From NCBI GenBank assembly GCA_037137535.1, contig JBAXKC010000048.1:1-17044 (forward strand): a stretch of 17,044 bases of DNA, in the 5' to 3' direction. This DNA is from a bacterium (GTDB lineage: Bacteria > Cyanobacteriota > Vampirovibrionia > Gastranaerophilales > JBAXKC01). Each line of letters opens with the position of its first letter. Position 1 is the stretch's first letter. This document shows, in pieces, positions 116 through 13,916 of this stretch. The position numbers and the translations under genes were made by a program. A model generated the notes under the pieces. The model saw nothing but the letters and a program-made list of their open reading frames with translations. It was not told the DNA's origin and searched no databases.

Positions 116-1348
116 TTATTTAATATGTTCAAATATTTTAAACATTGGGAGGTACATCCCTACAATAACAGCTCCGACCATACCACCTAAAAAAATCATC
201 ATTATTGGTTCTAGCATAGAAGTAAGTCCTGCTACAGCTGCTTCAACTTCCTGGTCGTAAAAGTCTGCTATTTTTTCCATCATTGCATCAAGTTCTCCGG
301 TTTCTTCACCTACAGAAATCATTGATACTACCATAGGAGGAAAGGCTTTCGAGCTTTCTAACTGAGTTGAAATCAACCCGCCCTGTTTTACTTCTTCATT
401 TACGCTTCTTATAATTGAGGCTATGTAAGTGTTGCCTGATGCTTCTTCCACAATATCTAAGGAGTATAGGATTGGAACACCGCTTTTTATTAGAGTTCCC
501 AGCGTTCTTGTAAATCTTGCTACTGCAAGTTTTCTTAAAAGTGGACCTAAAATAGGAACATTTAATATGAATTTATCAAAATTAAATCGAATTTTAGGTA
601 TGGAATAAAGTTTTTTTAATCCAAAAACAGTACAGCCTATAAAAACTATTAAAATAAATGATGCCGGTGATCTTAAAAAGTTGCTTATATTTATTAAAAA
701 TTGTGTGTAAGCTGGCAAGTCACTTCCCAGTTTTTGGAAAATACCTGCGAATTGTGGTAATACGAGTGTTAACATTACATAAAATATTATCATCGCAAAA
801 ATAGATACAACTGTCGGATATGCTAAAGCTGATTTTACTTTGTCGCTTAATCTTGCTCTATCTTCCATAAATTTTGCTATTCTGTTTAAAACATCATCAA
901 GAACACCGCCTGTTTCGCCTGCTCTGATCATACTGACAAACAGCGTATCAAATGTTTTTGGATGTTTAGCAAAAGAATCGGATAAGTTTATGCCTTGTTC
1001 TACATCGGATTTTACTTCATTTAGTATTTTTACAAGCATGGGATTTTCTGCTTGAGCTGCCATAATCGTTAAAGAACGCATCATTGCAACTCCTGAATTT
1101 ACCAGAGCAGAATATTGACGGCAAAAGACAACAAGATCTTTTAATCCTACTCCTGAAAGCCCACCTAAAATTCCATCAAGTTCAAAATCAAGAACAGTTT
1201 TTTTCTTTTCTTTATTTTCACTTATTTCAATAACCCAAAGACCTTTATCCACCAATAAAGAAACAGCTGTTTTTTCATTATCGGCAAGGATATTATTCTG
1301 GACTAAATTTCCCTTTTTATCTCTGGCTTTGTATTGAAATTGGGGCAT
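116..1348 (-). CDS. pilC: Type IV pilus inner-membrane platform protein PilC (GspF family)
   Basis: 410 aa. N-terminus MPQFQYKARD. Two GspF repeats (IRAGETGGVLDDVLNRIA; ISVGEETGELDAMMEKIADFY). C-terminal LEP...MYLPMF. GGAG SD upstream of the ATG. Directly downstream of pilB-pilT. Confidence 0.96.
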   Translation of the reverse strand: MPQFQYKARDKKGNLVQNNILADNEKTAVSLLVDKGLWVIEISENKEKKKTVLDFELDGILGGLSGVGLKDLVVFCRQYSALVNSGVAMMRSLTIMAAQAENPMLVKILNEVKSDVEQGINLSDSFAKHPKTFDTLFVSMIRAGETGGVLDDVLNRIAKFMEDRARLSDKVKSALAYPTVVSIFAMIIFYVMLTLVLPQFAGIFQKLGSDLPAYTQFLINISNFLRSPASFILIVFIGCTVFGLKKLYSIPKIRFNFDKFILNVPILGPLLRKLAVARFTRTLGTLIKSGVPILYSLDIVEEASGNTYIASIIRSVNEEVKQGGLISTQLESSKAFPPMVVSMISVGEETGELDAMMEKIADFYDQEVEAAVAGLTSMLEPIMMIFLGGMVGAVIVGMYLPMFKIFEHIK

Positions 1349-1421
1349 TAGTTTTCTCCAATAATATAGACCTGTTATTATTTAAACAAATTAAATGAAA
1401 AAGTAGAACATTTTATTTAAT

Positions 1422-2504
1422 TTATCTTACTCCGCTGGCTGCATCAAGCATTCTTTTCAGATCATCAGGACGACTTGATTTCATCATTGCATCATCGTAG
1501 GAGATTAATTTCTTCGCATATAAATCTCTTAGAGTTGTCTCAAGAGTCTGCATTTTCATTGCCCCACCTGTTTGTATTGCGGAATATATTTGAGCTGTTT
1601 TACCTTCTCTTATTAAGTTTGCAATAGCTGGAGTAACAATCATGATTTCCTGTGCAAGAACTCTTCCTTTTTTCTGACCGTCAGGACCTAATTTGGGAAT
1701 GAGAGTTTGTGAAAATACAGCTACTAAACTGTTTGATAATTGAATTCTTATTTGTTGTTGTTGTTCAGCAGGGAATACGTCTACAATTCTGTCTACTGTT
1801 TGACTTGCTGAAGAGGTGTGAAGAGTTCCCATTACAAGGTGACCTGTTTCTGCTGCTGTTAAGGCTAAGGAAACGGTTTCCAAGTCTCTTAACTCACCTA
1901 CAAGAATAATATCAGGATCTTCTCTTAATGCGGCTCTTAAAGCATTACTGAAACTTCTTGTATCTTGTCCTAATTCTCTTTGGTGAACTATGCTTCGTTT
2001 AGAACTATGTATAAATTCACAAGGGTCTTCAATTGTTAATATGTGTTCTGAGCGAGTAGCATTTATATGGTCAATCATTGATGCAAGAGTTGTTGATTTA
2101 CCGCTTCCTGTCGGACCTGTAACAAGAATTAGACCTCTTGGTTTTTCTGCAATTTCTCTAACAACAGAGGGAAGTCCTAAATCATCAAATGCAGGAATAT
2201 CAGTGGTAATTGCTCTGAATGCCGCAGCATAGTTACCTTTTTCTTTATAAACATTTACCCTGAAACGGCCAAGTCCATATACGCCATAACTGCAATCAAG
2301 TTCCCAATTTTGTTCCAGATTTCTTCTTTGCTCGTTATTTAACATGCCAAAAATTAGTCTCTGTACATCTTCTTTGGTAAGTGGCGGATGATCTGTTCTT
2401 AATAATTTACCATCAACCCTTATGACAGGCGGTAAGCCTGTTGATATATGTAAGTCGCTTCCATTTTTTTGAAAAACAAGTTGTAGTAAATCTTCTAGTA
2501 TCAT
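1422..2504 (-). CDS. pilT: Type IV pilus retraction ATPase PilT
   Basis: 360 aa. GSDLHI motif, RFRVNVY, Walker A GPTGSGKST, LREDPDIILVGE Walker B, GTLHT His box and AIANLIRE (AIRNLIRE-type PilT motif). Start overlaps the pilB stop (TAATG at 2502-2506). Confidence 0.97.
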   Translation of the reverse strand: MILEDLLQLVFQKNGSDLHISTGLPPVIRVDGKLLRTDHPPLTKEDVQRLIFGMLNNEQRRNLEQNWELDCSYGVYGLGRFRVNVYKEKGNYAAAFRAITTDIPAFDDLGLPSVVREIAEKPRGLILVTGPTGSGKSTTLASMIDHINATRSEHILTIEDPCEFIHSSKRSIVHQRELGQDTRSFSNALRAALREDPDIILVGELRDLETVSLALTAAETGHLVMGTLHTSSASQTVDRIVDVFPAEQQQQIRIQLSNSLVAVFSQTLIPKLGPDGQKKGRVLAQEIMIVTPAIANLIREGKTAQIYSAIQTGGAMKMQTLETTLRDLYAKKLISYDDAMMKSSRPDDLKRMLDAASGVR

Positions 2505-4534
2505 TATTCAGAGGTCTCCATATCAAGATTATTTTTAAAACCAAACTCTTTTAGCGAATTAAAACACCAAGGGCATTGTGTCATATCTAATGATATTCCA
2601 CCATTACAATAATTACAATGACTTTCTGTAGATTTGTCCGAGAGTTTAAATCCACATTTTGCACATGATATCCAGCCATCTTCTATCAATACATCACATC
2701 TCGGGCAAGTTTTCTTCAGCTCAAACTGACAAAACGGACATTGATGAAATTCTTCTCCAACAGGTTTTCCACAGGATGGACAAGCTGAATTCACACCATC
2801 TGAAGTAAAGGTTACCCGTATTACTTCATCGAGCGTTGTATAGCCTTCTTTTGCCAGTTCTAAACTGTATTCTAAAAGTGTTCTCATTCCGTGTTGTTGT
2901 GCTGCAAATCTTATTACTGCACTATTAGCACCTCTTGAAATTAAATCTTTAATGTGATCATTGATTTTCATTACTTCATAAGCACCAACTCTGCCTTTAT
3001 ATCCGCTTCCACTACATTTATCACAGCCTTTACCCTTATAATAAGTTTTGTTTCCGATTTTATCTATGCCTAAGTATTTTAATAAACTGTTTTCAGCTTC
3101 ATAGGCTTCTTTACAATTGCCACAAACTCTTCTTAACAGTCTTTGGGCAATTACTCCTATCATAGAGCTGGAAATAAGAAATGGTTCTACATCCATTTCC
3201 CTTAATCTCATTATGGAACTCGGGGCATCATTTGTGTGAAGTGTGGTAAATACGAGGTGTCCCGTTAAAGCTGCTTCAATAGCTATTTTAGCAGTTTCTT
3301 TATCTCTAGTTTCGCCAACTAGCATTATATCAGGATCTTGACGAAGAAAGGCTTTTAAGATTTTTGCAAAGTCAAGGCCGATTGTTTTATTGACTTCAGA
3401 TTGTGTTATGCCATTAAGGTCGTATTCTATCGGATCTTCCGCTGTTGAAATATTTACATCTACCGTATTTCTTTCACTTAATGCGCTATATAGAGTTGTC
3501 GTTTTTCCGCTTCCTGTCGGGCCTGTTACAAAAACAATTCCGTATGGTCTTTCTATCATTTCTCTTACGAGTTTTAGTGTATCCGCATTTGTTATAATTT
3601 TATCTAAACCTAATGAAATATTAGATTTATCAAGAATCCTCATAACAATTTTTTCTCCGAATTTACTCGGTAAAGTAGACACACGAAAATCTATAAATTT
3701 ATTTGAGGATTTAACACGAATTCTCCCGTCTTGAGGAATGCGTTTTTCTGCTATATCAAGCTCTGACATAATTTTATATCGAGAAATCAGTGCATTCTGA
3801 ATTTTTTTCGGTAAGCTCTTATATATTGTTAAAACACCGTCTAGGCGATATCTTACAATTAACTCTTTTTCTCTGGGTTCTATGTGTATATCACTTACAC
3901 CTTTTTTAATAGCAATTCCGAGAATACTGTTAGCAATTTGAATTATAGGTGCATCTTGACCTGAATCACTTAAATCTGCAACATCAAAATTATCTTCTTT
4001 GCCTTCAATAAGATCAATTCCCATTGAAGAAATAAGTTCATCAGCATCTTGTAATACTTCATCTGTATTTTCATCTTTTTTGGGAAAAACTGCTTCGGTA
4101 AATTTTATAAAGTCATCTAATAAAATTACATTTTTTTTGATTTTAACGTCTTTAAAATCTTTAAGTCTGTATTTTATTTCTCTTTCAGCATTTATATTAT
4201 CGGGTTCTACCATTGCAAAAGTAAAAAGATATCCACTTCTGCTTATAGGTATAATTTTATGATTAATTATAGTTTCTACGGGAAAAATACTTAAAAGCTC
4301 ATGATTTGGTTCAAATTGTTGCAAATTAAAGAAGCTTACCCCAAAATGAAGCTCTAAAGTTGCTTTAAGATTAATAAAGAACTCTTCTTTTTCAGCAAAC
4401 CCTTTTTCGCTGACAATATCTATAATATGCTTGGACGTTATTGATTTTTCTTTATAGACTGAATTCAGCTCATCTTCTGTTAAAATTTGAGCATCTAAAA
4501 TTAGTTCGTATAGCATGTCTTTTTGAGTAGACAT
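2504..4534 (-). CDS. pilB: Type IV pilus assembly ATPase PilB (GspE/PulE family) with a C-terminal multi-zinc-ribbon extension
   Basis: 676 aa. SDIHIEP, EKRIPQDGR, Walker A GPTGSGKTT, EDPIEY, LRQDPDIMLVGE, TLHTND and the tetracysteine loop CGNC...CDKC. Six extra CxxC motifs at aa ~585-657. Confidence 0.95.
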   Translation of the reverse strand: MSTQKDMLYELILDAQILTEDELNSVYKEKSITSKHIIDIVSEKGFAEKEEFFINLKATLELHFGVSFFNLQQFEPNHELLSIFPVETIINHKIIPISRSGYLFTFAMVEPDNINAEREIKYRLKDFKDVKIKKNVILLDDFIKFTEAVFPKKDENTDEVLQDADELISSMGIDLIEGKEDNFDVADLSDSGQDAPIIQIANSILGIAIKKGVSDIHIEPREKELIVRYRLDGVLTIYKSLPKKIQNALISRYKIMSELDIAEKRIPQDGRIRVKSSNKFIDFRVSTLPSKFGEKIVMRILDKSNISLGLDKIITNADTLKLVREMIERPYGIVFVTGPTGSGKTTTLYSALSERNTVDVNISTAEDPIEYDLNGITQSEVNKTIGLDFAKILKAFLRQDPDIMLVGETRDKETAKIAIEAALTGHLVFTTLHTNDAPSSIMRLREMDVEPFLISSSMIGVIAQRLLRRVCGNCKEAYEAENSLLKYLGIDKIGNKTYYKGKGCDKCSGSGYKGRVGAYEVMKINDHIKDLISRGANSAVIRFAAQQHGMRTLLEYSLELAKEGYTTLDEVIRVTFTSDGVNSACPSCGKPVGEEFHQCPFCQFELKKTCPRCDVLIEDGWISCAKCGFKLSDKSTESHCNYCNGGISLDMTQCPWCFNSLKEFGFKNNLDMETSE

Positions 4535-6358
4535 TTAGATTCCCTTATCCAAAACTACCAAAACATTTTTAATTGTATTTTCAAAAGTCATAAGAGAAGT
4601 TCCCTCTATTATAAAAATAGCTAGTTTATCTTCAATCTTTTTTATAACTAATGATTTACTTTTCTCAAAAATAATAACTGATTCAAGCGGCTGAGTTTGT
4701 ATGTTAATAACAAATATCGCTAAATTATCAAAAATAGAAGATGAGATGGAAGCTATTTTCTTTAATTCTTCGTCCTTTTCTTCGTTATTTTCATTAGTAT
4801 CTACAAATAATGCAGCCATTACTTCGTCATTAATAAGTAATGATTCTATTTCTATATTCTCTAAACTTTTTGCCTTCAGTATTTCAGAAATTTCAGAAGT
4901 TTTAAAGTTATTGTTATCAGCTATTTCAAGAGCATAAATTTTATCCTTTGATAAATTTAATAATATTGATGATGTTGTAGTATTAAAAATTATATTATCA
5001 ATACTATTAAATGCCAGTTGTGATACATAATTCTGCACAGTCATAAAGGCATGTGCCGCTACTGCACCAATAGTTTGTTCAAGGTGTAAGTTTCCTATAT
5101 TGCTTTTTAAAATAAACCCGCTCTTATCAATTAAAGAAACTGTTGTTACCTTTGAGCAAATTTCTTTGATTTTAGAGAAAATCTCGTTAGATTGGTTACC
5201 TGCTTCTACAGAAACTATATTTGTCCTGAAATTACCGGCATGTCCAATGGATCCAAGTTCAATAAGGTTTTCAATATCTCGTTCATTTACTATTAATTTT
5301 CCGATAGAGGTTATTTTACCTTCTTTTTCTTCTTTTCTATCGCTTAGATTGTTTGCCAGTCTTATATTTTCAGGTATAAACTGAAATGGAGCTGACTCTT
5401 TCACTTCATCTATGCCAAATTTTATTTGTTTTTTTACTGATAATTTATCATCTTCCATTTTGATTTCGGGTAAATCACCAAGATTTCCTTCAAACATTGA
5501 GTTAATATCTTCATTAATTATAGGTTTAATTGTTTCTTCTTCTGTTTTCTCTTGATAGTCCCATTCAGAAGTAAATATGTCTTCATTGAGAGGTGTTCCT
5601 GAAAGAGTAGGGATTGTAGCGTTTGTTGGCTCTGTTGTTTGAGCCTTTGTATCACTCAGTTCATAGTGTTCTTCAAAGAAATTATTCAGTTCTTCTTCTT
5701 TTTCGGGGTTTTCTTCTTTTTGTTTCATCGCAGAAGTTATTTCTTCTAAACCTACAGGCATTCCTAAATCAGGTCTATTTAAACCATCCGGTTTTTTAGC
5801 TATAAGTTCAGAACTTTTTATAATTTCTTCTTTAGGCTCTTCTTTAATTATAGAATCATTAATATCAAGTTGAGGTTGTATTTCTTCTTCGATTATTTCT
5901 GATTCAATTTCAATCTTATTGGTTGTTTCTGTTTCTTCTATTATAAGGGTTTGAGCTGGTTTATTGCTTTTTGTATTAATGGTTATGTTGTCTTTTACCA
6001 GTTCAGCCGTAATACATCCCGCTAAAACAGAGAATGCAAAGGTTGCGTAGTTTAATTTGAAGTCTATTGAATTAATAAGCCCTATGGCTTCTAATTTTAA
6101 TAAGGCACTGAGTATATTGGCTGTAAATAACATGAATCCTGAAACGATAAATCCTAATAATGAAAATAGGATGATTTCAAGGGTAGTTTTTTTTGAGTAT
6201 CTTATAAAATTTATTATGCAAAAAAGACTGATGTAGCCAACTATAATAACAGGTAGAGGTGTAATAATGTTGAAAGGACAAATTTTATCTATAAATATTG
6301 ATAGAATTCCCATTATTATACTGGATGAAAAAATTATTATCAGTTTTTTATTATTCAT
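4535..6358 (-). CDS. Membrane protein: ~4 N-terminal TM helices, acidic linker, C-terminal Roadblock/LC7 (MglB-like) domain plus a probable degenerate second copy
   Basis: 607 aa. Four hydrophobic stretches in aa 1-120, then an E/D/P-rich linker. aa ~392-480 read VTTVSLIDKSGFILKS...EQTIGAVAAHAFMTVQNYVSQL...IDNIIF, a Roadblock pattern. aa ~503-607 show a similar pattern (VMAALFVD...IASISSSIFDNL...LESVII). The stop TAA abuts the pilB ATG. Confidence 0.72.
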   Translation of the reverse strand: MNNKKLIIIFSSSIIMGILSIFIDKICPFNIITPLPVIIVGYISLFCIINFIRYSKKTTLEIILFSLLGFIVSGFMLFTANILSALLKLEAIGLINSIDFKLNYATFAFSVLAGCITAELVKDNITINTKSNKPAQTLIIEETETTNKIEIESEIIEEEIQPQLDINDSIIKEEPKEEIIKSSELIAKKPDGLNRPDLGMPVGLEEITSAMKQKEENPEKEEELNNFFEEHYELSDTKAQTTEPTNATIPTLSGTPLNEDIFTSEWDYQEKTEEETIKPIINEDINSMFEGNLGDLPEIKMEDDKLSVKKQIKFGIDEVKESAPFQFIPENIRLANNLSDRKEEKEGKITSIGKLIVNERDIENLIELGSIGHAGNFRTNIVSVEAGNQSNEIFSKIKEICSKVTTVSLIDKSGFILKSNIGNLHLEQTIGAVAAHAFMTVQNYVSQLAFNSIDNIIFNTTTSSILLNLSKDKIYALEIADNNNFKTSEISEILKAKSLENIEIESLLINDEVMAALFVDTNENNEEKDEELKKIASISSSIFDNLAIFVINIQTQPLESVIIFEKSKSLVIKKIEDKLAIFIIEGTSLMTFENTIKNVLVVLDKGI

Positions 6359-6401
6359 GTTAAAAAGCCTAACTGGTTAAAAATAAAGGTGCTTAGGCAA
6401 T

Positions 6402-6430
6402 ATGATACTAGATTTTATATTGTTTGGCAA
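6402..6430 (-). promoter_or_regulatory. Putative sigma70-type promoter for the Roadblock gene-pilB-pilT-pilC unit
   Basis: Minus strand TTGCCA (6430-6425), 17 nt spacer, TATCAT (6407-6402), about 43 nt upstream of the ATG at 6358. Confidence 0.45.
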
Positions 6431-6464
6431 ACTGCATAAGTATTAGTTGCTTTATTTTAAAGGC

Positions 6465-8276
6465 TTACAGTCTGCTATTTTCTTTTAAAACTTCTAGTAT
6501 TGATATTTTTGCAATTTTATTCAGATATATTTTTAAAGTTTGTGTCTCATTTATATTTGCGAAAAGATTTTGACTTTTTTCAATAATTTTATAGACAAAC
6601 TCTTCTAATAAGTCTTCATTTTTAGAAAATCTCGGATTACTTCTTACTATTTCTTCAAGAATATCAATATGCTCGTCAGTTAGGTTTAATTCACTTATTA
6701 TATTTTGAAGCTTTGTTATATCTGCTTTATCCTCAACGATGGTTGAAGATTCTGTTTCATAATAAGTAGTTTCAGGCTCTTGTATGCTCTTTGAAGAAGT
6801 TGTAAAACTTTCAGAGTAGCTTGTTGTAACAATTTCTCTGAATTCAGTATTTTCTTTCGGTATAAAGTTTTCGTTATGATTAACTTCGTAAAAATTAAAG
6901 TTATTTGATTGTTGTTTAGGTTCAGCTTCGATGGCATTGTAATTGTTCTCAGAACTATAGTTATCAAAAGAGTCTTGAAGTCTTTCAATCAGAGCATGAT
7001 TTTCTTCCAGATTAAAGGATTTAACTGGATCAATCGGTTTTTCGGCAACAGTACAAGCTGTTTTATTACAGATAACTGTTTTTGACTGATTAAGTCTTGA
7101 CAGAATTTGCTCGGAGGTTTGTTTCCTCTCCTCAATAACGGCTTGCTGTTTTTTATTTGTATTTTCTTGTTCTTTTTTTAATTTATTTAGTAATAATTTT
7201 AGTAATACTATTATTGTTATTAATGCAACAGCTATTCCAGCAAGTAGTGATATTAGAGGATTTTGATTACTGCTTTCAGGTTTTTGATTTTCAGTTTTTA
7301 CTTGAGTTTGATCAAAATTAATAACATTTTTAGTGGGATTTGGCTCAACATTTTCAACAGGAGGTGTTTGTATGTTTTGTTGTGATAATAAATTATCCGC
7401 TTTATTAACAGTTCCTGTATCATTAACTGTTACAGCAGTAGATTTAGTAGCTTCTGCTAAAGTTGGTTTTTCAACAATAGGTTGAGGTGCTATTTTTTTA
7501 ACAGCTTCATTAGGGGTTATTTTTTTTGTTGTTGCTATTAACGATTTATCATTAGTTTTTATTATGTCTTTTGCTACTACTGCTTTAGGTTCAATGGTTG
7601 CTTTTTTAGTTGATTTTATAAGAGGAATTGTTGTTGTAGTAAGTATTAATTTATTGTCTTTTTTTGTTGCAATAACAGATTTTATTGGCTGTTTAAGTGA
7701 CGTATCTATTGTTTTTACAGGTATTATTACTTTAGTCGGTTTAACTGCCTGTGCTATTTTTATCTTTGTTTGTTTAGTCGATACCTGTTTTTTTGTTATA
7801 GCGTTTGATTTTTTATTTGCAATTTGTGACAGGTCTCTATCAATAGTATTATTTTGTGGTGCAACTTTATTATTAACATAGAAATTCATATTATCATTTG
7901 TAGTTTTGATAATAATTTTAGTATATCCGTTGTTTGCGTTTGCTCCTATATAAGGAATAAGTTTGACATCAACATCTTTAACTGATCCATCATTTGACAC
8001 AACTGTCGGCTTTGTTGTAATTGAATGATAAGTTTCAGGTAAGAATATTACATATTCATTATTCTGCATATGTTTAGGATCGAGTTTTATTTTATAAGGT
8101 TTTGAAGAGTATAAAGTAATATTTACTTCTTTATCAACGGGTCTATTTTCAATATTTACTTTTAAAAGTTGATTAGAATATTGGTTTTCTATCGCAAGAG
8201 CTGCGTAGAAATTGAAAGATGACATCATGCTTCCAAGTATAAATATTCTAAATAATTTTTGCTTGTTAAAACCCAT
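6465..8276 (-). CDS. Single-pass membrane protein: signal peptide, AMIN-like periplasmic domain, K/T/P-rich linker, TM helix, acidic cytoplasmic region, C-terminal sigma2-like domain
   Basis: 603 aa. Signal peptide probably ends ...YAALA|IEN. beta-rich aa ~35-127 (LLKVNI...VNITLY...YVIFLPET...VKDVDV...TKIIIKT) resembles AMIN. TM PLISLLAGIAVALITIIVLL (aa ~340-360) is followed by KLLLNKLKK. aa 530-603 align without gaps to aa 1-74 of the neighbouring sigma factor. Confidence 0.75.
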   Translation of the reverse strand: MGFNKQKLFRIFILGSMMSSFNFYAALAIENQYSNQLLKVNIENRPVDKEVNITLYSSKPYKIKLDPKHMQNNEYVIFLPETYHSITTKPTVVSNDGSVKDVDVKLIPYIGANANNGYTKIIIKTTNDNMNFYVNNKVAPQNNTIDRDLSQIANKKSNAITKKQVSTKQTKIKIAQAVKPTKVIIPVKTIDTSLKQPIKSVIATKKDNKLILTTTTIPLIKSTKKATIEPKAVVAKDIIKTNDKSLIATTKKITPNEAVKKIAPQPIVEKPTLAEATKSTAVTVNDTGTVNKADNLLSQQNIQTPPVENVEPNPTKNVINFDQTQVKTENQKPESSNQNPLISLLAGIAVALITIIVLLKLLLNKLKKEQENTNKKQQAVIEERKQTSEQILSRLNQSKTVICNKTACTVAEKPIDPVKSFNLEENHALIERLQDSFDNYSSENNYNAIEAEPKQQSNNFNFYEVNHNENFIPKENTEFREIVTTSYSESFTTSSKSIQEPETTYYETESSTIVEDKADITKLQNIISELNLTDEHIDILEEIVRSNPRFSKNEDLLEEFVYKIIEKSQNLFANINETQTLKIYLNKIAKISILEVLKENSRL

Positions 8277-8294
8277 TTTTTAATACTCGATTAT

Positions 8295-8873
8295 TTACTT
8301 AATTCCAATATCTTTTAATATTACAAAAACTTTTTTCGCCAGTTCTGTAAGTCTTTTACTTACCTCACTTTGAGAAATTCCAACTTCTTCGGAAATTTGA
8401 AATTGAGTCATTCCTTGGTGGTAACGTAGGTTGAATAATTTTTGATATTCTTTTTCAGGATATTTTTCACTTACAAGAATAACACAATTTTTTATGTGTT
8501 TAATTTCTTCTTTATCAATAATATTTTCTTCTACATTAATTGCAGGATCTTCAATATCAAGAATAAGATCACCTTGATCATCTTTAAGATAAGGTGTTTC
8601 TCTATTTAATGAAACTTCAAGCCTTTTATGGTAGCCATCACGAGTTCTGGTCAGTCTTCCCGAAGATTTCAGCACTTCAAGTATGGCAGAACTTGCAATT
8701 TTATTTATGTATAAGTCAACATTAGCTTTATTATGTAATGAGGACATTACACTATAAGAGCGTTTAAAAGTTTCACTGCAAAAATCTTCAACAAGATCTT
8801 CGTTTCCACTAAATCTTGGGTTTTTTCTGATTATATTTTCGATTAAATAGCGATATTCTTGTGTTAATTCCAC
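8295..8873 (-). CDS. Small sigma-70 family (ECF-sized) RNA polymerase sigma factor
   Basis: 192 aa, GTG start. sigma2-like NEDLVEDFCSETF and YINKIASSAILEVLK. Linker ...SLN...ILDIEDP. sigma4 HTH YQKLFNLRYHQGMTQFQISEEVGISQSEVSKRL. Confidence 0.85.
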   Translation of the reverse strand: MELTQEYRYLIENIIRKNPRFSGNEDLVEDFCSETFKRSYSVMSSLHNKANVDLYINKIASSAILEVLKSSGRLTRTRDGYHKRLEVSLNRETPYLKDDQGDLILDIEDPAINVEENIIDKEEIKHIKNCVILVSEKYPEKEYQKLFNLRYHQGMTQFQISEEVGISQSEVSKRLTELAKKVFVILKDIGIK

Positions 8874-8906
8874 TCTTCTCGTCCACCAAAAGAAAAACTA
8901 CTTGTG

Positions 8907-8934
8907 ATACTAGAACATAATACTAATAATTCAA
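8907..8934 (-). promoter_or_regulatory. Possible promoter for the sigma factor gene
   Basis: Minus strand TTGAAT (8934-8929), 16 nt spacer, TAGTAT (8912-8907). A second candidate is TTCATT-17-TATAAT at 8986-8958. The AT-rich background weakens both. Confidence 0.3.
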
Positions 8935-9005
8935 TCTTATCATACTACATTATTTTCATTATAGACCAAAAGTTCTATAAAATGAAAAAGTAAAATTAAT
9001 TGTAA

Positions 9006-11966
9006 TTAAAGATCAATCACACTGTTAATCTTGATATAAGCTTTTTTTGTGTCTACTTTCGGCATTTTTGTGTAAGAGAAACTTTCTTTAATAGTTTTTA
9101 ACATTATTTGATCAACTTCCTCAGACCCACTTGATTGTCTTATTGCTGAATATTTTAAGTTTCCGTCAAGATCAAAAATCAGCATCACTTTTACTTTGTT
9201 ATTTGTTGCTTGCGTCTTTGCGGCTACCAATGACTTAGAAAGGGAAAATTTCAACATTTGTCCTGTAAGTAGTAAATAGCTTTTTAGTCTTTCATTTGAT
9301 CCCATTGATTGACCTATTTCCCACTTTACGTCATCAATTCTCACTTTTTCATATTTATTTTCAAGTGCTTTTGCTAATGCACTTGAGGTTTTAATTTGCT
9401 GATTTTGTTTTGACTTATTATTTACAGGCTGCATCTGCTGATTTAAAGTAGGATTGCCCATTCCTTGATGTGAAATAGGTTGTCCCATCATATTTGGAGC
9501 AGGTGGTGTTGAATTATTTGGTAGATTATGAGAAGGCGCAGCGGCCATATTGGGTGGCATTGAGTTATTTGGCATATTTGGAGGTGTATTATTCATGTTT
9601 GGTGGCATGTGATTTTCTGGGCTTGGTGGTATTGAATTATTTTGCATCATTGGTTGCGTTGCCGTCATGTTTGGTTGTATTGGTTGTTGCATATTACTTT
9701 CAGCTTGATTCTTAGTCATATTATTATAGAAATTAACTGCTGCAAAACCGCTTAAGGTTAGAATTCCTATTGTTGTTGCAGCTATTGCCAATGTTTTTGC
9801 AGGTGATCCTGTTTTATGCTGACTTGTTGAAGGAGTAGCAGTTGTATATTCTTCGTCAAGTACAAAATTAGGGTCATTTAGTTTTTCGTCTACTGCATGC
9901 ATAAAGTCATCATGGCTTTCATATTCGTCAATTGAGCCATACCCCTCAATCTCTCCATTGGAGCTAGTCGGCATCGCCATTTTGTCATCTGCGACTTCAT
10001 CGTGTAATCCGAAAGACTCAATTGTGTCAACTATTTCTATATCCTCTAATGCAGAGATCATATCATTAAGTTCATTATTTTCTTTACCTGTAACTTCATT
10101 TTTATCTTGTATGTTTTCAATGTCAGTTACTTTTTCAGTATCTAAATTAAGATCTTTTAAGCAAATTTCATCACAGCCGTTTAGTTCTACTACCTTAACA
10201 ACTTCTTTATCCAGCTCTATATCTCTTTCAATGGCATCTAATACTTCATTATTGTATTCATCTATGTATTGACCTGGTAGTTCATCCGATAAACTGTCGT
10301 TATAGTTTTTTGCCAATTCATCTATATCTTCTTCGGATAATTCTATATCGTTCAGTTCATCAATATTAATTTCATGTTCTTCAAAGTGGTTTTTTACTTC
10401 ATTGATATCACTTAGTTCTGCATGTTCTTTCATGTTGATACTGTTGTCATAGAACTTATCTTCGCTTAATTCTCCAAGTTCTTCTTGAGGTAAATTAAAG
10501 TCAGGTAATTCATCATGAGTAAGCTCATTATTTTCAAATCTGTTTTCTATTTCAGTTATTTCATCTTCTGAAAATTCCAGGTTATTAAGAGACTTTGTAC
10601 TGGCTTCGAGTTCATCAAATGTATCTATCCTTAAAAAGTTAGCATCGTTTTCTTCATTGATTTCTAATTGATCTGGTGAAGGTAAATTCATGTTGTCATT
10701 ATTTACTTCATTAAATTCAAGATTCAAACCTATATTACTTAATTCTTCATTAGTTATGTCTTTTGGGATATCAATTTCATCTAAAGAATTAGAATCGACT
10801 TCATGATATGTAAAATCCTCTACTTTTAAGAAATCATCATTGTATTCTTCGTTGAGTTCTAATTGATCTAATGAAGGTAAACTCATGTTGTCATCGTTTA
10901 CTTCATTAAATTTAAAATCAGATACTTCTGTAAACTCTGTGTTTTCGTTAATATCTTCAAGTTCAATTTTATTGTTTACGTCTGATAATTCAGGGTTTGT
11001 TTGAATAAGTTCGTTATAGTTGGTTAATTCTTCTTGAGGAGAATTAAGTTCTAATATAGTTTCTTCAACTATTTCGTTTATTTGTTTAAAATCAGAGTTA
11101 TCAAAAGTTGTTAATTCTTCGGTGGCTTCTACTAGTAGCGGTAAACTACTTTCTATATTTATCAGATTATCCACAGGAGGTAAAATCGCAACAGGAGGTA
11201 TGACAGGTGCTGCAATAAAAGTTAAGGCTTCATTGTTTTTTACTTCATCTATAATGTTAGTTGTAATTATTTTTAATAAGTTCTTATCTTTAAATTGTTT
11301 TAATTTTTTATCAAAACTATAGAAATCATTAAATTCACGTCTGCACTTAGGGCATTTTGCCATATGTCTAATAAGAAAATCTTTATCATTGGCGGAAATA
11401 GTGTTATCTATGTATGCTCCAAAAACAGATACAGCTCTTTCATGTTCGGACGGAATACTGAAATAAGTAGGTGTTTTTATTGTGTTTAAAGTGTCTTTAA
11501 GCTCTTCCATCTGGTGAAGCTTTGATTTATCTATAATAATATAGTTTTTATCGCCTCTGACGTTTAATGTTTCTGCTTTTGTTACAAAACCAAGAAATTC
11601 TATTTTAGAGATGGATTTATTTAATTTTGCGGCTATATAAACATCAGGACTAAACCCGAAGAAAATATGATTTCTTGGTATTAATAAAGAAGAACATTCT
11701 TCTCCTACCATTGTTCTAATATCAATTTTCTTTTCGTTAACAACAATGTCTGCAACATCATATTTGTCTAAAAATATCGGACAAGAAGAAAAAGATTCTG
11801 AATTGTTTGCATTTAATCCGTTATTCTTTGCATATTTAGAGAATGCATTAACTGAAATCATTGAAACGTAAGCACGTTTTCTGCTTTTTTCAGACTCAAG
11901 CTCTGAAATTAGTTGCTTTATTGTATTTTTATTTTGTTCATTGATTTCAATTATTGCGGCAGACAT
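9006..11966 (-). CDS. Putative trans-envelope anti-sigma factor: DUF1822-like domain, ZAS zinc finger, acidic linker, TM helix, Pro-rich linker, TonB/TolA C-terminal-like domain
   Basis: The ORF track starts at GTG 11978, but ATG 11966 has a GAGG SD upstream (986 aa). Numbering from 11978: DVADI...IDIR...IP...YIAAKL...EFLGFV (DUF1822-like). H179-x25-H205xxxC209xxC212 with preceding AYIDNTIS. TM LAIAATTIGILTLSGFAAV (aa ~730-750). C-terminal VKVMLIFDLDGNLKYSAIRQSSGSEEVDQ. Confidence 0.78.
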   Translation of the reverse strand: MSAAIIEINEQNKNTIKQLISELESEKSRKRAYVSMISVNAFSKYAKNNGLNANNSESFSSCPIFLDKYDVADIVVNEKKIDIRTMVGEECSSLLIPRNHIFFGFSPDVYIAAKLNKSISKIEFLGFVTKAETLNVRGDKNYIIIDKSKLHQMEELKDTLNTIKTPTYFSIPSEHERAVSVFGAYIDNTISANDKDFLIRHMAKCPKCRREFNDFYSFDKKLKQFKDKNLLKIITTNIIDEVKNNEALTFIAAPVIPPVAILPPVDNLINIESSLPLLVEATEELTTFDNSDFKQINEIVEETILELNSPQEELTNYNELIQTNPELSDVNNKIELEDINENTEFTEVSDFKFNEVNDDNMSLPSLDQLELNEEYNDDFLKVEDFTYHEVDSNSLDEIDIPKDITNEELSNIGLNLEFNEVNNDNMNLPSPDQLEINEENDANFLRIDTFDELEASTKSLNNLEFSEDEITEIENRFENNELTHDELPDFNLPQEELGELSEDKFYDNSINMKEHAELSDINEVKNHFEEHEINIDELNDIELSEEDIDELAKNYNDSLSDELPGQYIDEYNNEVLDAIERDIELDKEVVKVVELNGCDEICLKDLNLDTEKVTDIENIQDKNEVTGKENNELNDMISALEDIEIVDTIESFGLHDEVADDKMAMPTSSNGEIEGYGSIDEYESHDDFMHAVDEKLNDPNFVLDEEYTTATPSTSQHKTGSPAKTLAIAATTIGILTLSGFAAVNFYNNMTKNQAESNMQQPIQPNMTATQPMMQNNSIPPSPENHMPPNMNNTPPNMPNNSMPPNMAAAPSHNLPNNSTPPAPNMMGQPISHQGMGNPTLNQQMQPVNNKSKQNQQIKTSSALAKALENKYEKVRIDDVKWEIGQSMGSNERLKSYLLLTGQMLKFSLSKSLVAAKTQATNNKVKVMLIFDLDGNLKYSAIRQSSGSEEVDQIMLKTIKESFSYTKMPKVDTKKAYIKINSVIDL
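9480..9690 (-). repeat. Pro/Asn/Met-rich low-complexity repeats in the predicted periplasmic linker
   Basis: PPNM three times and NNSxPP three times within QNNSIPPSPENHMPPNMNNTPPNMPNNSMPPNMAAAPSHNLPNNSTPPAPNMM. Confidence 0.7.
10650..10912. repeat. Intragenic direct repeat, two 68-nt copies with a 195-nt (65-aa) period
   Basis: 10650-10717 versus 10845-10912, 7 mismatches in 68 nt by hand alignment. Encodes FNEVNNDNMNLPSPDQLEINEE and FNEVNDDNMSLPSLDQLELNEE. Confidence 0.88.
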
Positions 11967-12038
11967 TATTATCCTCACTTTTAAATAGTTATTAATCCTT
12001 CTATTATTATAGAGAACACATGACTAAAAATTATTCCA

Positions 12039-12063
12039 ATTTTGTGAAAAAATTTTACAAAAT
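12039..12063. promoter_or_regulatory. Imperfect palindrome (possible operator) in the divergent promoter region
   Basis: ATTTTGTGAAA-AAA-TTTTACAAAAT: 11-nt arms with one mismatch, between the divergent starts at 11966 and 12114. Confidence 0.3.
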
Positions 12064-12113
12064 ATATTAAATACATAATAATAAAGTATTGCTAAAAGAA
12101 TTGAAAAGCGGAT

Positions 12114-13916
12114 ATGAAAAGAGTTAAACAGTTATCAGAAAATCTTATAAATCAGATTGCAGCAGGTGAAGTAATTGAAAGACCTGCTTCGGTTGTAAAA
12201 GAATTAATAGAAAATTCAATTGACGCAGGGGCCTATAAAATTGAAATAGAAATATCGAATGAGTGTAGAAACATCAGAATTGCAGATAATGGTTCGGGGA
12301 TTCATAAAGATGATTTAAAGTTGGCCTTCTCAAGGCATGCTACCAGTAAAATATACTCTCAAGATGATTTATGGCGTATCTCTTCATTAGGGTTTCGTGG
12401 GGAAGCTCTTGCCAGTATAAGTTCAGTTGCAAAAGTCAGTTGTCTTTCGAGGACAGCCGATTCAGCAGTCGGTTATAAAGTTATTTGCGAAAATTCTAAT
12501 ATAGAAATATCTGAAACAGGTTGTTCAATTGGCACGATAATGGATATTAAAGACCTTTTTTATAATGTGCCGGCAAGAGTTAAATTTTTAAAAAAAGCAC
12601 AGACGGAATTTGCTTATATCGCTGAAACTATTGAATCTACAGCATTGGCCAATCCCCATGTTGCAATAACACTAATTTATAAAGGTAATACTGTAATAAA
12701 AACATCGGGTAACATTGATTTAAAAGAAACTATTTCTGAAATATTTTCAAAAGAGTTGTTAAATGAACTTTTTGAAGTTAATAAACTTGACGAGCCTTTT
12801 AAATATTATGTTAATGGATATGTCAGCACCCCTTCTTATACACGAGGAAATAGAAAAAGCTATTACGTTTTCATTAACGGAAGAAGCGTAAAATGTCAGT
12901 TTATCTCAAAATCTATTGATAATGCTTATAGAGATTTAATTCCATCGGGGAGATTTCCTTTTGTTGTGATTAATCTTTCTGTACCGCCAAATGAGATTGA
13001 TGTAAATGCTCACCCGACAAAAAAAGAAATAAGATATGCTAATACAAATCAAGTTTTCGGCTTTATTTATGCAGCAATAAAACAGGCTGTCGAAAGTGGA
13101 TTACGTGGAACTTCAAATAGATTGTTACCAACATCTGACGATACTTTTGAAACATTGGAAAAAACTGAGAATATAACCTTTGTAAAAACTTTTGAGCCTG
13201 ATTATTCTCAAAATAGTATAAGTTTTAATTTTGATTCTTTTAAGGAGAAAAATTCTTATCAAGTTGAAGAAGTTCAGGCTGCTGTTGATTTTTATAAACC
13301 TATAGCTGAAATAGTAAGTCCTAAAGAGTTTTATCAGTTTAAAGAAACAGAAATTATTGAAAAACCTAAGATAATAGGACAATTTCATAATACATATATT
13401 TTAATTGAAGAGTCTGACGGTTTTTCTATAATTGATCAGCATATTGCCCATGAACGGACAATTTACGAGCAGTTAAAACAAAAACGTCAGTTAGCCAGTC
13501 AATTAATAATTTCAACGCAGGAAATAGGTTTAAATTATTCTGATTTTTCTAAGCTACTGGATAATAAAAATTTACTTGCTGATTTTGGCATAGAATTTGA
13601 AGAAATTGGTAATAATAAAATAATTTTAAGAAAAATTCCTCAAATTTTATCTAATGAGCCTCACGATGAAATAATTTCTAGTATTTTAGAGGCTATGAGT
13701 CATGATATTCAATCGATTGAGAATGAAATATTAATTTCTATTTCTTGTAAAAGTGCGGTAAAGGCAAATGAAAAACTGCCTATTCCTCAAATGGAAAGAC
13801 TTATCCAAGATTGGCAAAATACTCCAAATAATCAGACTTGCCCTCATGGTAGAGTAATAAGCCATAAAATATCACTTAAAGAAGTAGCTGGGTATTTTGG
13901 TCGTTTTGAAAAATAA
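12114..13916 (+). CDS. mutL: DNA mismatch repair endonuclease MutL
   Basis: 600 aa. NQIAAGEVIERPASVVKELIENSIDAGA, DNGSGI, RHATSKI, GFRGEALASI and DVNAHPTKKEIR. Endonuclease motifs DQHIAHERTIYE, SCK, CPHGR and FGR. Confidence 0.98.
   Translation: MKRVKQLSENLINQIAAGEVIERPASVVKELIENSIDAGAYKIEIEISNECRNIRIADNGSGIHKDDLKLAFSRHATSKIYSQDDLWRISSLGFRGEALASISSVAKVSCLSRTADSAVGYKVICENSNIEISETGCSIGTIMDIKDLFYNVPARVKFLKKAQTEFAYIAETIESTALANPHVAITLIYKGNTVIKTSGNIDLKETISEIFSKELLNELFEVNKLDEPFKYYVNGYVSTPSYTRGNRKSYYVFINGRSVKCQFISKSIDNAYRDLIPSGRFPFVVINLSVPPNEIDVNAHPTKKEIRYANTNQVFGFIYAAIKQAVESGLRGTSNRLLPTSDDTFETLEKTENITFVKTFEPDYSQNSISFNFDSFKEKNSYQVEEVQAAVDFYKPIAEIVSPKEFYQFKETEIIEKPKIIGQFHNTYILIEESDGFSIIDQHIAHERTIYEQLKQKRQLASQLIISTQEIGLNYSDFSKLLDNKNLLADFGIEFEEIGNNKIILRKIPQILSNEPHDEIISSILEAMSHDIQSIENEILISISCKSAVKANEKLPIPQMERLIQDWQNTPNNQTCPHGRVISHKISLKEVAGYFGRFEK

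Follow-up and report, generated by a model that had tools for sequence, protein, structure and literature searches.

To our knowledge, what is known of sigma-factor mimicry comes essentially from PhyR alone, a soluble system limited to Alphaproteobacteria. Class I and ZAS-type anti-sigma domains bind region 2 of sigma factors (sigma2), and the mimicry by PhyR is described as an established release mechanism in the accessible part of PMC8999054. Here we describe a stretch of 17,044 nucleotides (contig JBAXKC010000048.1, hereafter the window) in which a gene on the minus strand, at 6465..8276, encodes P0001, a membrane protein of 603 residues whose last 74 residues are a copy of region 2 of a sigma factor of extracytoplasmic function (ECF) type encoded next to it, P0002. 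The bacterium is an uncultured melainabacterium of the gut type, the Melainabacteria being the non-photosynthetic sister group of cyanobacteria. This architecture is real, is more than a product of chance and recurs in four divergent proteins. Our tentative reading is that P0001 might be a membrane-tethered sigma2 mimic, which would compete with P0002 for a neighbouring candidate anti-sigma factor, P0003, much as an anti-anti-sigma factor does.

The copy lies at residues 530-603 of P0001 (6468..6689, minus strand). BLASTP of P0001 against P0002 returns one ungapped segment, residues 532-603 on residues 3-74, with 31/72 identical residues, 51/72 positives and an E-value of 6e-17; the original prediction, made by a reading of the window alone, had announced an ungapped alignment of residues 530-603 to sigma residues 1-74 with 31 identities, and only one of these within positions 32-54, which is indeed S39. 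The sigma factor P0002 (8295..8873, minus strand; 192 residues, with sigma2 at 8652-8873) belongs to the source lineage of the copy. It matches TIGR02937 (sigma70-ECF) with 63.1 bits for a cutoff of 42.9, from its residue 3 to its residue 181 and over profile positions 6-160 of 165, while its match to Sigma70_r4 is weak (E 4.8e-5). By this profile, P0002 is a complete ECF-type sigma factor with both sigma2 and sigma4, and the extent of the match implies that its first 74 residues are the region 2 part.

At the DNA level copy and source (222 nucleotides each) are identical at 124/222 positions; the proportion of synonymous differences is 0.58, which corresponds to a synonymous divergence (dS) of about 1.1, and the nonsynonymous divergence (dN) is 0.58. 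Among the codons of the 31 identical residues 17 are the same and 14 different, and the sole DNA repeat between the two segments is 47 nucleotides long at 70% identity. The copy is thus an old duplication retained at the protein level, as had been proposed, and not an assembly repeat or an artefact. It also stops where sigma2 ends: the last residue of P0001 is the one aligned to sigma residue 74, which is the final position of the domain profile. As for sigma4, said beforehand to be missing from the copy, P0001 has no Pfam match to Sigma70_r4, and a sigma4 query matches P0002 alone in the window. Because the copy has no sigma4, P0001 cannot itself be a sigma factor and cannot direct transcription.

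A sigma2 without sigma4 could nevertheless be one subunit of a split sigma factor, in the style of RsoA/SigO, the membrane-bound sigma2 complementing a separate protein made of sigma4 only. Two-subunit sigma factors do exist, SigO-RsoA being the example given in the accessible part of PMC7826278, and standalone clusters with Sigma70_r2 only are found among the structural neighbours of the copy in the Atlas. However, the adjacent P0002 is complete over TIGR02937, and the window contains no open reading frame made of sigma4 only, the sigma4 query having matched nothing else than P0002. We therefore regard a split sigma factor as very improbable.

That the copied piece is homologous to region 2 was part of the original prediction and is borne out, by two lines of evidence: the neighbour is a genuine sigma70-ECF protein according to TIGR02937, and the profile of the family aligns to region 2 of known sigma factors in the PDB, namely SigW (5wuq; E 0.004, from region 2 through region 4) and SigR region 2 (1h3l; E 0.027). 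In the former alignment the family string 'EDfcsetykksy...YLkKi' stands on SigW 'EDIAQEAFIRAY...WLYRI'. The Pfam model stays below its threshold here: Sigma70_r2 (PF04542) has no match in P0001, in P0002 or in residues 519-603 taken alone; at E<=0.1 it recognises only 7/54 members of the alignment, at best with 0.00097, and the sigma factor of a related locus, L004, scores 17.6 bits, below the 24-bit cutoff. Judged by these scores, the whole family of P0002 relatives is divergent in region 2. Two Pfam names given below threshold to residues 519-603, GAT (E 0.013) and DUF6339 (E 0.016), are unrelated and were dismissed.

The AlphaFold2 model of residues 519-603, built on a 54-row alignment, has five helices with a mean predicted local distance difference test score (pLDDT) of 95.7. 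Compared with the PDB by Foldseek, its top three matches are chains of the Mycobacterium tuberculosis SigH holoenzyme (E 0.35-0.55, probability 0.85-0.91, TM-score by query 0.56), followed by sigmaE region 2, RpoE-NepR, AlgU-MucA and SigE; in this search 0/132 matches reached E<=0.001. The structural neighbours in the Atlas are likewise clusters of the sigma-70 family (TM-score by query 0.56-0.64), several of them with Sigma70_r2 in 100% of their members, and the Atlas feature search with the same residues gave no usable match. Of the predicted sigma2 fold, the confident helical model and its proximity to ECF sigma2 domains are thus retained, and a significant match to any one structure is not. 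We accept the copied piece as sigma region 2 mainly from its homology to the neighbouring sigma factor, the fold being consistent with it though weak alone.

From its N-terminus P0001 consists of a signal-peptide-like start (hydrophobic residues 11-29, then ...AALA/IENQ), a periplasmic beta domain, a linker, one transmembrane helix, a cytoplasmic linker and the sigma2-like end. The transmembrane segment is at residues 338-368 (7173..7265, minus strand; Kyte-Doolittle window score 3.01) and is followed by the Lys-rich stretch KLKKEQENTNKKQQ, so that the positive-inside rule places the last 235 residues, sigma2-like end included, probably in the cytoplasm, on the side where the copy had been placed from the start. 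That P0001 is bitopic, lies in the inner membrane and comes from a Gastranaerophilales-like melainabacterium is well supported; the window has a G+C content of 26-36%, and its nearest relatives are metagenome-assembled genomes labelled Candidatus Gastranaerophilales, Vampirovibrio or Melainabacteria.

The periplasmic domain (residues 30-145; 7842..8189, minus strand) is a conserved beta-sandwich matched in 35 loci, and three homologues of the sigma2 type are identical to it at 57-87 of 116 positions. Its AlphaFold2 model is all-beta (pLDDT 82.5). The Foldseek match with the top probability and the lowest root mean square deviation (rmsd) is AmiC of E. coli (4bin; probability 0.84, TM-score by query 0.48, rmsd 3.0, E 0.4), though it ranks only 20 by E-value, and 0 of at least 500 matches reached E<=0.001. 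The name AMIN, initially given to this domain, finds no support in Pfam—AMIN (PF11741) does not match P0001 at E<=1—and AmiC remains a weak structural lead.

How widespread is this architecture? Residues 519-603, searched against 1.84 billion representative proteins at E<=0.001, gave 61 matches. In 56 of them the match starts within the first 16 residues of proteins of 72-333 residues, which are the sigma family itself, many members being truncated. Four are long membrane proteins that finish with the domain: P0005 (586 residues as recorded), which is the database record of P0001 itself, P0006 (549), P0008 (572) and P0009 (411); the entire architecture of P0001 is common to all four. The last match, P0017 (316 residues), has the architecture neither of a sigma factor nor of a membrane protein: it carries four tandem repeats, and each of them matches the sigma2-like query over its first half, 'KLTNEEI..IEEIIKTNPR.AKK' (four stretches, E 1.1e-6). 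A profile of the four sigma2-type proteins, searched against 5.8 billion proteins, found 27 family proteins, among which the same four end in sigma2; the other 23 have a beta-rich end, recognised by its own profile and unmatched by the sigma2 profile.

The periplasmic domain was also scanned by tblastn over 185,579 species genomes, where it is found in 35 loci (L001-L035; E 1e-40 to 3e-5), 34 of which are matched by phmmer with the same domain, L032 being missed. All 35 encode the beta-rich end, which is FliO-like, and none encodes a sigma2 end. Pfam FliO recognises the beta-rich end with E 1.8e-5 in L004 and E 0.0026 in L001; conversely the profile of the FliO-like domain matches none of P0005, P0006, P0008 and P0009, nor anything in the window. 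The anticipated conservation of the copy in orthologues is thus partial: it is kept in P0006, P0008 and P0009, and most relatives have a FliO-like end instead. Its position beside the same sigma family is seen in the window, and one further case is probable: P0006 and P0067, the latter a homologue of the anti-sigma candidate, both list one contig of 18569 bases.

The FliO-type proteins are an uncharacterised family found widely in Gastranaerophilales. They have a signal-peptide-like start, a periplasmic beta domain, a low-complexity linker, a transmembrane helix and a cytoplasmic FliO-like domain; their genes lie for example at 9929-11350 in L004 and at 9971-11320 in L001. The neighbourhood of these genes is variable, with a CLC channel, cation efflux or tyrosyl-tRNA synthetase gene at different loci, and a gene of the sigma family is found near only one of the 35, in L004. 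In L017 (6623-7426) and L018 (6625-7428), on the plus strand and some 2.6 kb upstream from the FliO-type gene, a protein of 267 residues has a sigma4-like match to P0002 (E 4.6e-6 and 2.8e-7 respectively) and lacks the sigma2 of the P0002 family. A further observation concerns the segment that follows the membrane in P0001, residues 369-425 (7002-7172, minus strand): it contains the juxtamembrane cytoplasmic motif ERKQTSEQILSRLNQSK, then a C-x5-C pair, and is kept in P0006 (37/57 identical) and P0008 (21/57). Strings like 'ILSRLSQ' or 'ILARLSQ' also follow the transmembrane helix in some FliO-type relatives, e.g. P0075 and P0076.

Where the copy is present, its protein sequence is conserved. 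Over the 74 residues of the sigma2-like domain, P0006, P0008 and P0009 are identical to P0001 at 44, 32 and 31 positions, with 0, 0 and 3 gapped positions respectively. The values for the cytoplasmic linker that precedes it (104 residues) are 34, 20 and 6 identities with 24, 9 and 88 gapped positions, and those for the periplasmic linker (192 residues) 46, 32 and 25 identities with 31, 44 and 78 gapped positions. In this alignment the sigma2 copy is a conserved island between poorly conserved, gappy linkers. Moreover, 18 positions are conserved to 70% or more among 58 sigma-type rows: eight of them (N24, E25, D26, L27, Y55, L68, K69 and R73) are unchanged in every one of the four membrane copies, nine are retained in some of the four, and the start methionine alone is lost.

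Two trees inform on the origin of the fusion. The periplasmic-domain tree unites P0005, P0006 and P0008 in one clade (SH-aLRT branch support 98), inside a 26-row group otherwise of the FliO type; P0009 belongs to the same group with no resolved placement, and a grouping of all four is not rejected (approximately unbiased test, p-AU 0.18). In that of the sigma2 domain, which has 74 columns only and many open forks, the four copies fall in a 16-row set with P0002, the L004 sigma factor and P0007 (support 95%); P0005, P0006 and P0008 again form a clade (97), and P0009 is nearer the sigma factors, being 50% identical to P0002. As P0009 is apart from the three others in both trees, either the fusion survived a deep split or it arose twice. 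Because all other relatives by the periplasmic domain end in a FliO-like domain, the sigma2 end is well supported as a derived swap of domains within a small clade of Gastranaerophilales, where it replaced the ancestral cytoplasmic FliO-like end. In the simplest history, the ancestor would be a membrane protein with a FliO-like cytoplasmic end, its gene lying just downstream of the sigma/anti-sigma pair, and a second copy of the opening 74 sigma codons would then have taken the place of this end. As an outgroup, the locus L004 is informative: it has, in this order, a homologue of the anti-sigma candidate, a sigma factor of 191 residues whose region 2 is 68% identical to that of P0002, then a phosphoglucomutase-like gene and finally the gene of the FliO-type protein.

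Such a history might have left a mere evolutionary by-product: the first 74 sigma codons became fused to the neighbour gene, and a stable helical bundle has persisted since, with no specific regulatory role. The rarity of the architecture and its limitation to few related lineages would fit, as would the adjacency of the source gene and the fact that the FliO-like end is the family rule (23/27 proteins, 35/35 loci). On the other hand the copy is old with regard to its source (dS about 1.1), it is an ungapped conserved island amid diverged, heavily gapped linkers, it retains the signature residues of the family in a fold predicted at a pLDDT of 95.7, and the position of P0009 in both trees means that it survived a deep split or originated twice. 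All this makes a by-product unlikely.

If the copy does have a partner, RNA polymerase comes to mind. The copy could sit on the beta' clamp helices and act as a competitor of sigma factors, as a tether of the polymerase to the membrane, or, after intramembrane proteolysis, as a diffusible half-sigma inhibitor. Motifs resembling region 2.2 (NEDL..F) and region 2.4 (Y..K...I..VLK...R) are kept in the four copies, which speaks for this possibility, and there are known complete ECF sigma factors that are tethered to the membrane and freed by proteolysis, namely IutY, ECF48/52/53 and the ECF36 members that have N-terminal transmembrane helices (accessible part of PMC8999054). Without sigma4, however, the copy cannot direct transcription, and a single membrane protein is unlikely to titrate the polymerase. 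A third objection comes from position 34, a glutamate in 84% of the sigma factors, aligned to the glutamate of the region 2.2 string 'AQEAF' of SigW: this conserved residue is lysine in P0001 and arginine in P0006. The change of glutamate to lysine at the equivalent position of sigma70 impairs the binding to core polymerase. Lys or Arg in this place would suit a domain with no further use for RNA polymerase, as in the decoy explanation given below. On balance we give this explanation a low probability.

The partner could also be P0002 itself. In that case P0001 would act on the sigma factor as its scaffold or as a second regulator, the copy pairing for example with the sigma4 or the long linker of P0002, or entering a ternary sigma/anti-sigma complex; it would localise or stabilise the complex without any competition. 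P0002 and P0001 are encoded 18 nucleotides apart and are probably co-transcribed, P0001 and P0003 are both membrane proteins with long linkers, and the PhyR system itself was proposed to act via a ternary complex (accessible part of PMC8999054). Nothing in our analysis, though, specifically favours a scaffold. Also counting against it, we know of no precedent for a sigma2 domain that binds the sigma4 of another sigma factor in trans, and we hold it to be as improbable as the binding of polymerase.

The candidate that remains to be presented is P0003 (9006..11978, minus strand). It has 990 residues from the first GTG, and the 986 of the original prediction when counted from the ATG that is used in the database record. 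It comprises a DUF1822-like N-terminus (E 1.1e-9), a zf-HC2 domain (E 4.2e-5) with HxxxCxxC at residues 205-212, an acidic repetitive linker of about 480 residues, a transmembrane helix at residues 729-750 and a TonB_C-like periplasmic end (Pfam TonB_2, E 5.1e-4). Its homologues are P0067 and the product of L004:2396-6788. In L004 the homologue is read as two overlapping open reading frames on the plus strand, 2396-5065 (DUF1822 and zf-HC2) and 4890-6788 (TonB_C), which probably reflects a frameshift or faulty assembly within the acidic repeats of the linker. A co-occurrence of ECF sigma genes with DUF1822 'TPR' proteins is reported in the accessible part of PMC8195603.

The explanation that we rank first, and propose with due reserve, is that of a decoy. 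The tethered sigma2 copy would contend with P0002 for P0003, at the DUF1822/ZAS domain on the cytoplasmic side of this membrane anti-sigma, both competitors being attached to one and the same membrane by long, flexible linkers. How much sigma factor is free would then depend on the state of the periplasmic beta domain of P0001, as in the partner switch of an anti-anti-sigma factor, and the output would probably be the operon itself, possibly also the type IV pilus genes downstream. We place it before the others because the copy lacks sigma4 and is tethered, with long linkers, in the same membrane as a candidate of the ZAS type; because it derives from a sigma factor presumably bound by P0003; and because ZAS and class I domains contact sigma2 and PhyR offers a precedent.

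Several observations weigh against this explanation. The sigma2 end is rare, being present in 4/61 representative matches, 4/27 family proteins and 0/35 species-level loci. From the latter count it follows that this sigma family can in general do without a sigma2-type protein, and the rarity argues that the sigma2 end is a lineage-specific add-on, not a core part of the sigma system. L004 pairs the same sigma and anti-sigma with a FliO-type protein and has no sigma2-type one. Position 34, discussed above, is still glutamate in P0008 and P0009. The surfaces by which sigma2 binds anti-sigma factors and the beta' clamp helices overlap, so that the conservation of NEDL..F cannot separate the two kinds of binding. 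Finally, PhyR uses both its sigma2-like and its sigma4-like halves, where P0001 has sigma2 alone.

The decoy could be taken one step further, as an independent invention of sigma mimicry. The ancestor would be an envelope-sensing membrane protein (periplasmic beta domain, transmembrane helix, FliO-like output); a local duplication of 74 codons would have made of it a membrane-tethered, sigma2-only anti-anti-sigma that, beside type IV pilus genes, frees the neighbouring ECF sigma factor from a ZAS/TonB_C anti-sigma, and this might have happened twice. This extended version we consider rather unlikely as a whole, and more so than the decoy taken by itself.

The genes concerned are all on the minus strand and are transcribed in the order P0003, P0002, P0001, P0004, then pilB/pilT/pilC, with 132 nucleotides between P0003 and P0002. 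Upstream of the anti-sigma gene a conserved non-coding block (12018..12037, minus strand), GGAATAATTTTTA(G/A)TCATGT and then CTCTATA, is common to the window and to L004, where it also precedes the anti-sigma gene (2346-2374, plus strand). It occurs a single time in the window for 0.02 chance matches expected, and is a candidate promoter of the operon, possibly one recognised by P0002 itself. A scan of 4400-12200 for promoters and terminators found no excess over shuffled sequences (44 promoters versus 40.5, 4 terminators versus 2.9), so that operon boundaries cannot be drawn from it.

P0004 (4535-6358, minus strand; 607 residues) is encoded between P0001 and pilB, directly upstream of the latter. 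Its N-terminus has three to four hydrophobic segments, which suggest a polytopic protein. After an acidic linker comes a C-terminal part that has proteins with Roadblock/LC7 domains as its nearest neighbours in the Atlas (feature score 0.85, structural TM-score 0.59); P0004 has no Pfam or NCBIfam match. This membrane-bound Roadblock-like protein could be part of pilus regulation. The genes pilB, pilT and pilC (116-4534, minus strand) were named from reading of their translations. The PilB homologue (2504-4534, minus strand; 676 residues) is extended at its C-terminus by some 100 residues, in which several CxxC pairs—CPSC...CPFC, CPRC...CAKC and CNYC...CPWC—look, as read from the translation, like zinc-ribbon repeats. 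None of the fetched flanks of the 35 relative loci has a match to PilB, PilT or PilC, and the link to the pilus is found in the window only.

If the decoy is true, half a sigma factor suffices as a regulatory module, and such mimics can arise repeatedly by duplication of a neighbouring sigma gene; if the domain has no partner, it is a mere curiosity of domain shuffling. The locus is also a rare example of a signalling protein rewired by a swap of its output domain, and a datable one, because the source gene is still adjacent and the unswapped ancestral form survives in sister genomes (L004). It offers a first handle on the unstudied DUF1822-ZAS-TonB_C sigma/anti-sigma pair of Melainabacteria.

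In the accessible literature, PMC7826278 and the available part of PMC8999054 included and supplements and subscription journals standing outside, no membrane-anchored protein with sigma2 only is described; the architecture thus appears both rare and undescribed, and it is best defined by its likenesses. With the FliO-type family of Gastranaerophilales (L001-L035, P0068-P0090) P0001 shares the signal-peptide-like start, the periplasmic domain (24-55% identity to that of P0001 for 25 rows from these loci) and the single transmembrane helix, and in L004 the FliO-type gene comes just downstream of the same pair of sigma and anti-sigma genes, as P0001 does in the window; the C-terminus is beta-rich and FliO-like in that family, whereas it is sigma2 in P0001. 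RsoA, like P0001, has sigma region 2 only and no sigma4, but it is small and soluble and completes a partner devoid of that region, while P0001 carries its sigma2 at the end of a membrane protein of 603 residues and has a complete sigma factor for neighbour. The membrane-tethered ECF sigma factors (IutY; ECF48/52/53, e.g. SCO4117; ECF36) also have sigma domains fused to transmembrane segments, and in ECF36 members the membrane part is N-terminal of sigma2 as in P0001 (accessible part of PMC8999054). These proteins, however, are complete, with sigma2 and sigma4, and are thought to be released by proteolysis, whereas P0001 ends after sigma2.

The closest likeness is to PhyR-NepR-EcfG, where again a non-sigma protein with a domain homologous to ECF sigma factors is encoded together with a sigma/anti-sigma pair. 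PhyR is soluble, combines a sigma2-like with a sigma4-like half and has a receiver domain as its switch; P0001 has sigma2 only, a membrane anchor and a periplasmic domain, with no Pfam match to Response_reg and none to sigma4. The anti-sigma beside it is a ZAS/DUF1822/TonB_C membrane protein, that of PhyR being NepR. P0001 is not a member of the PhyR family; its proposed logic would nevertheless be that of PhyR, a mimic taking the anti-sigma factor away from the sigma factor.

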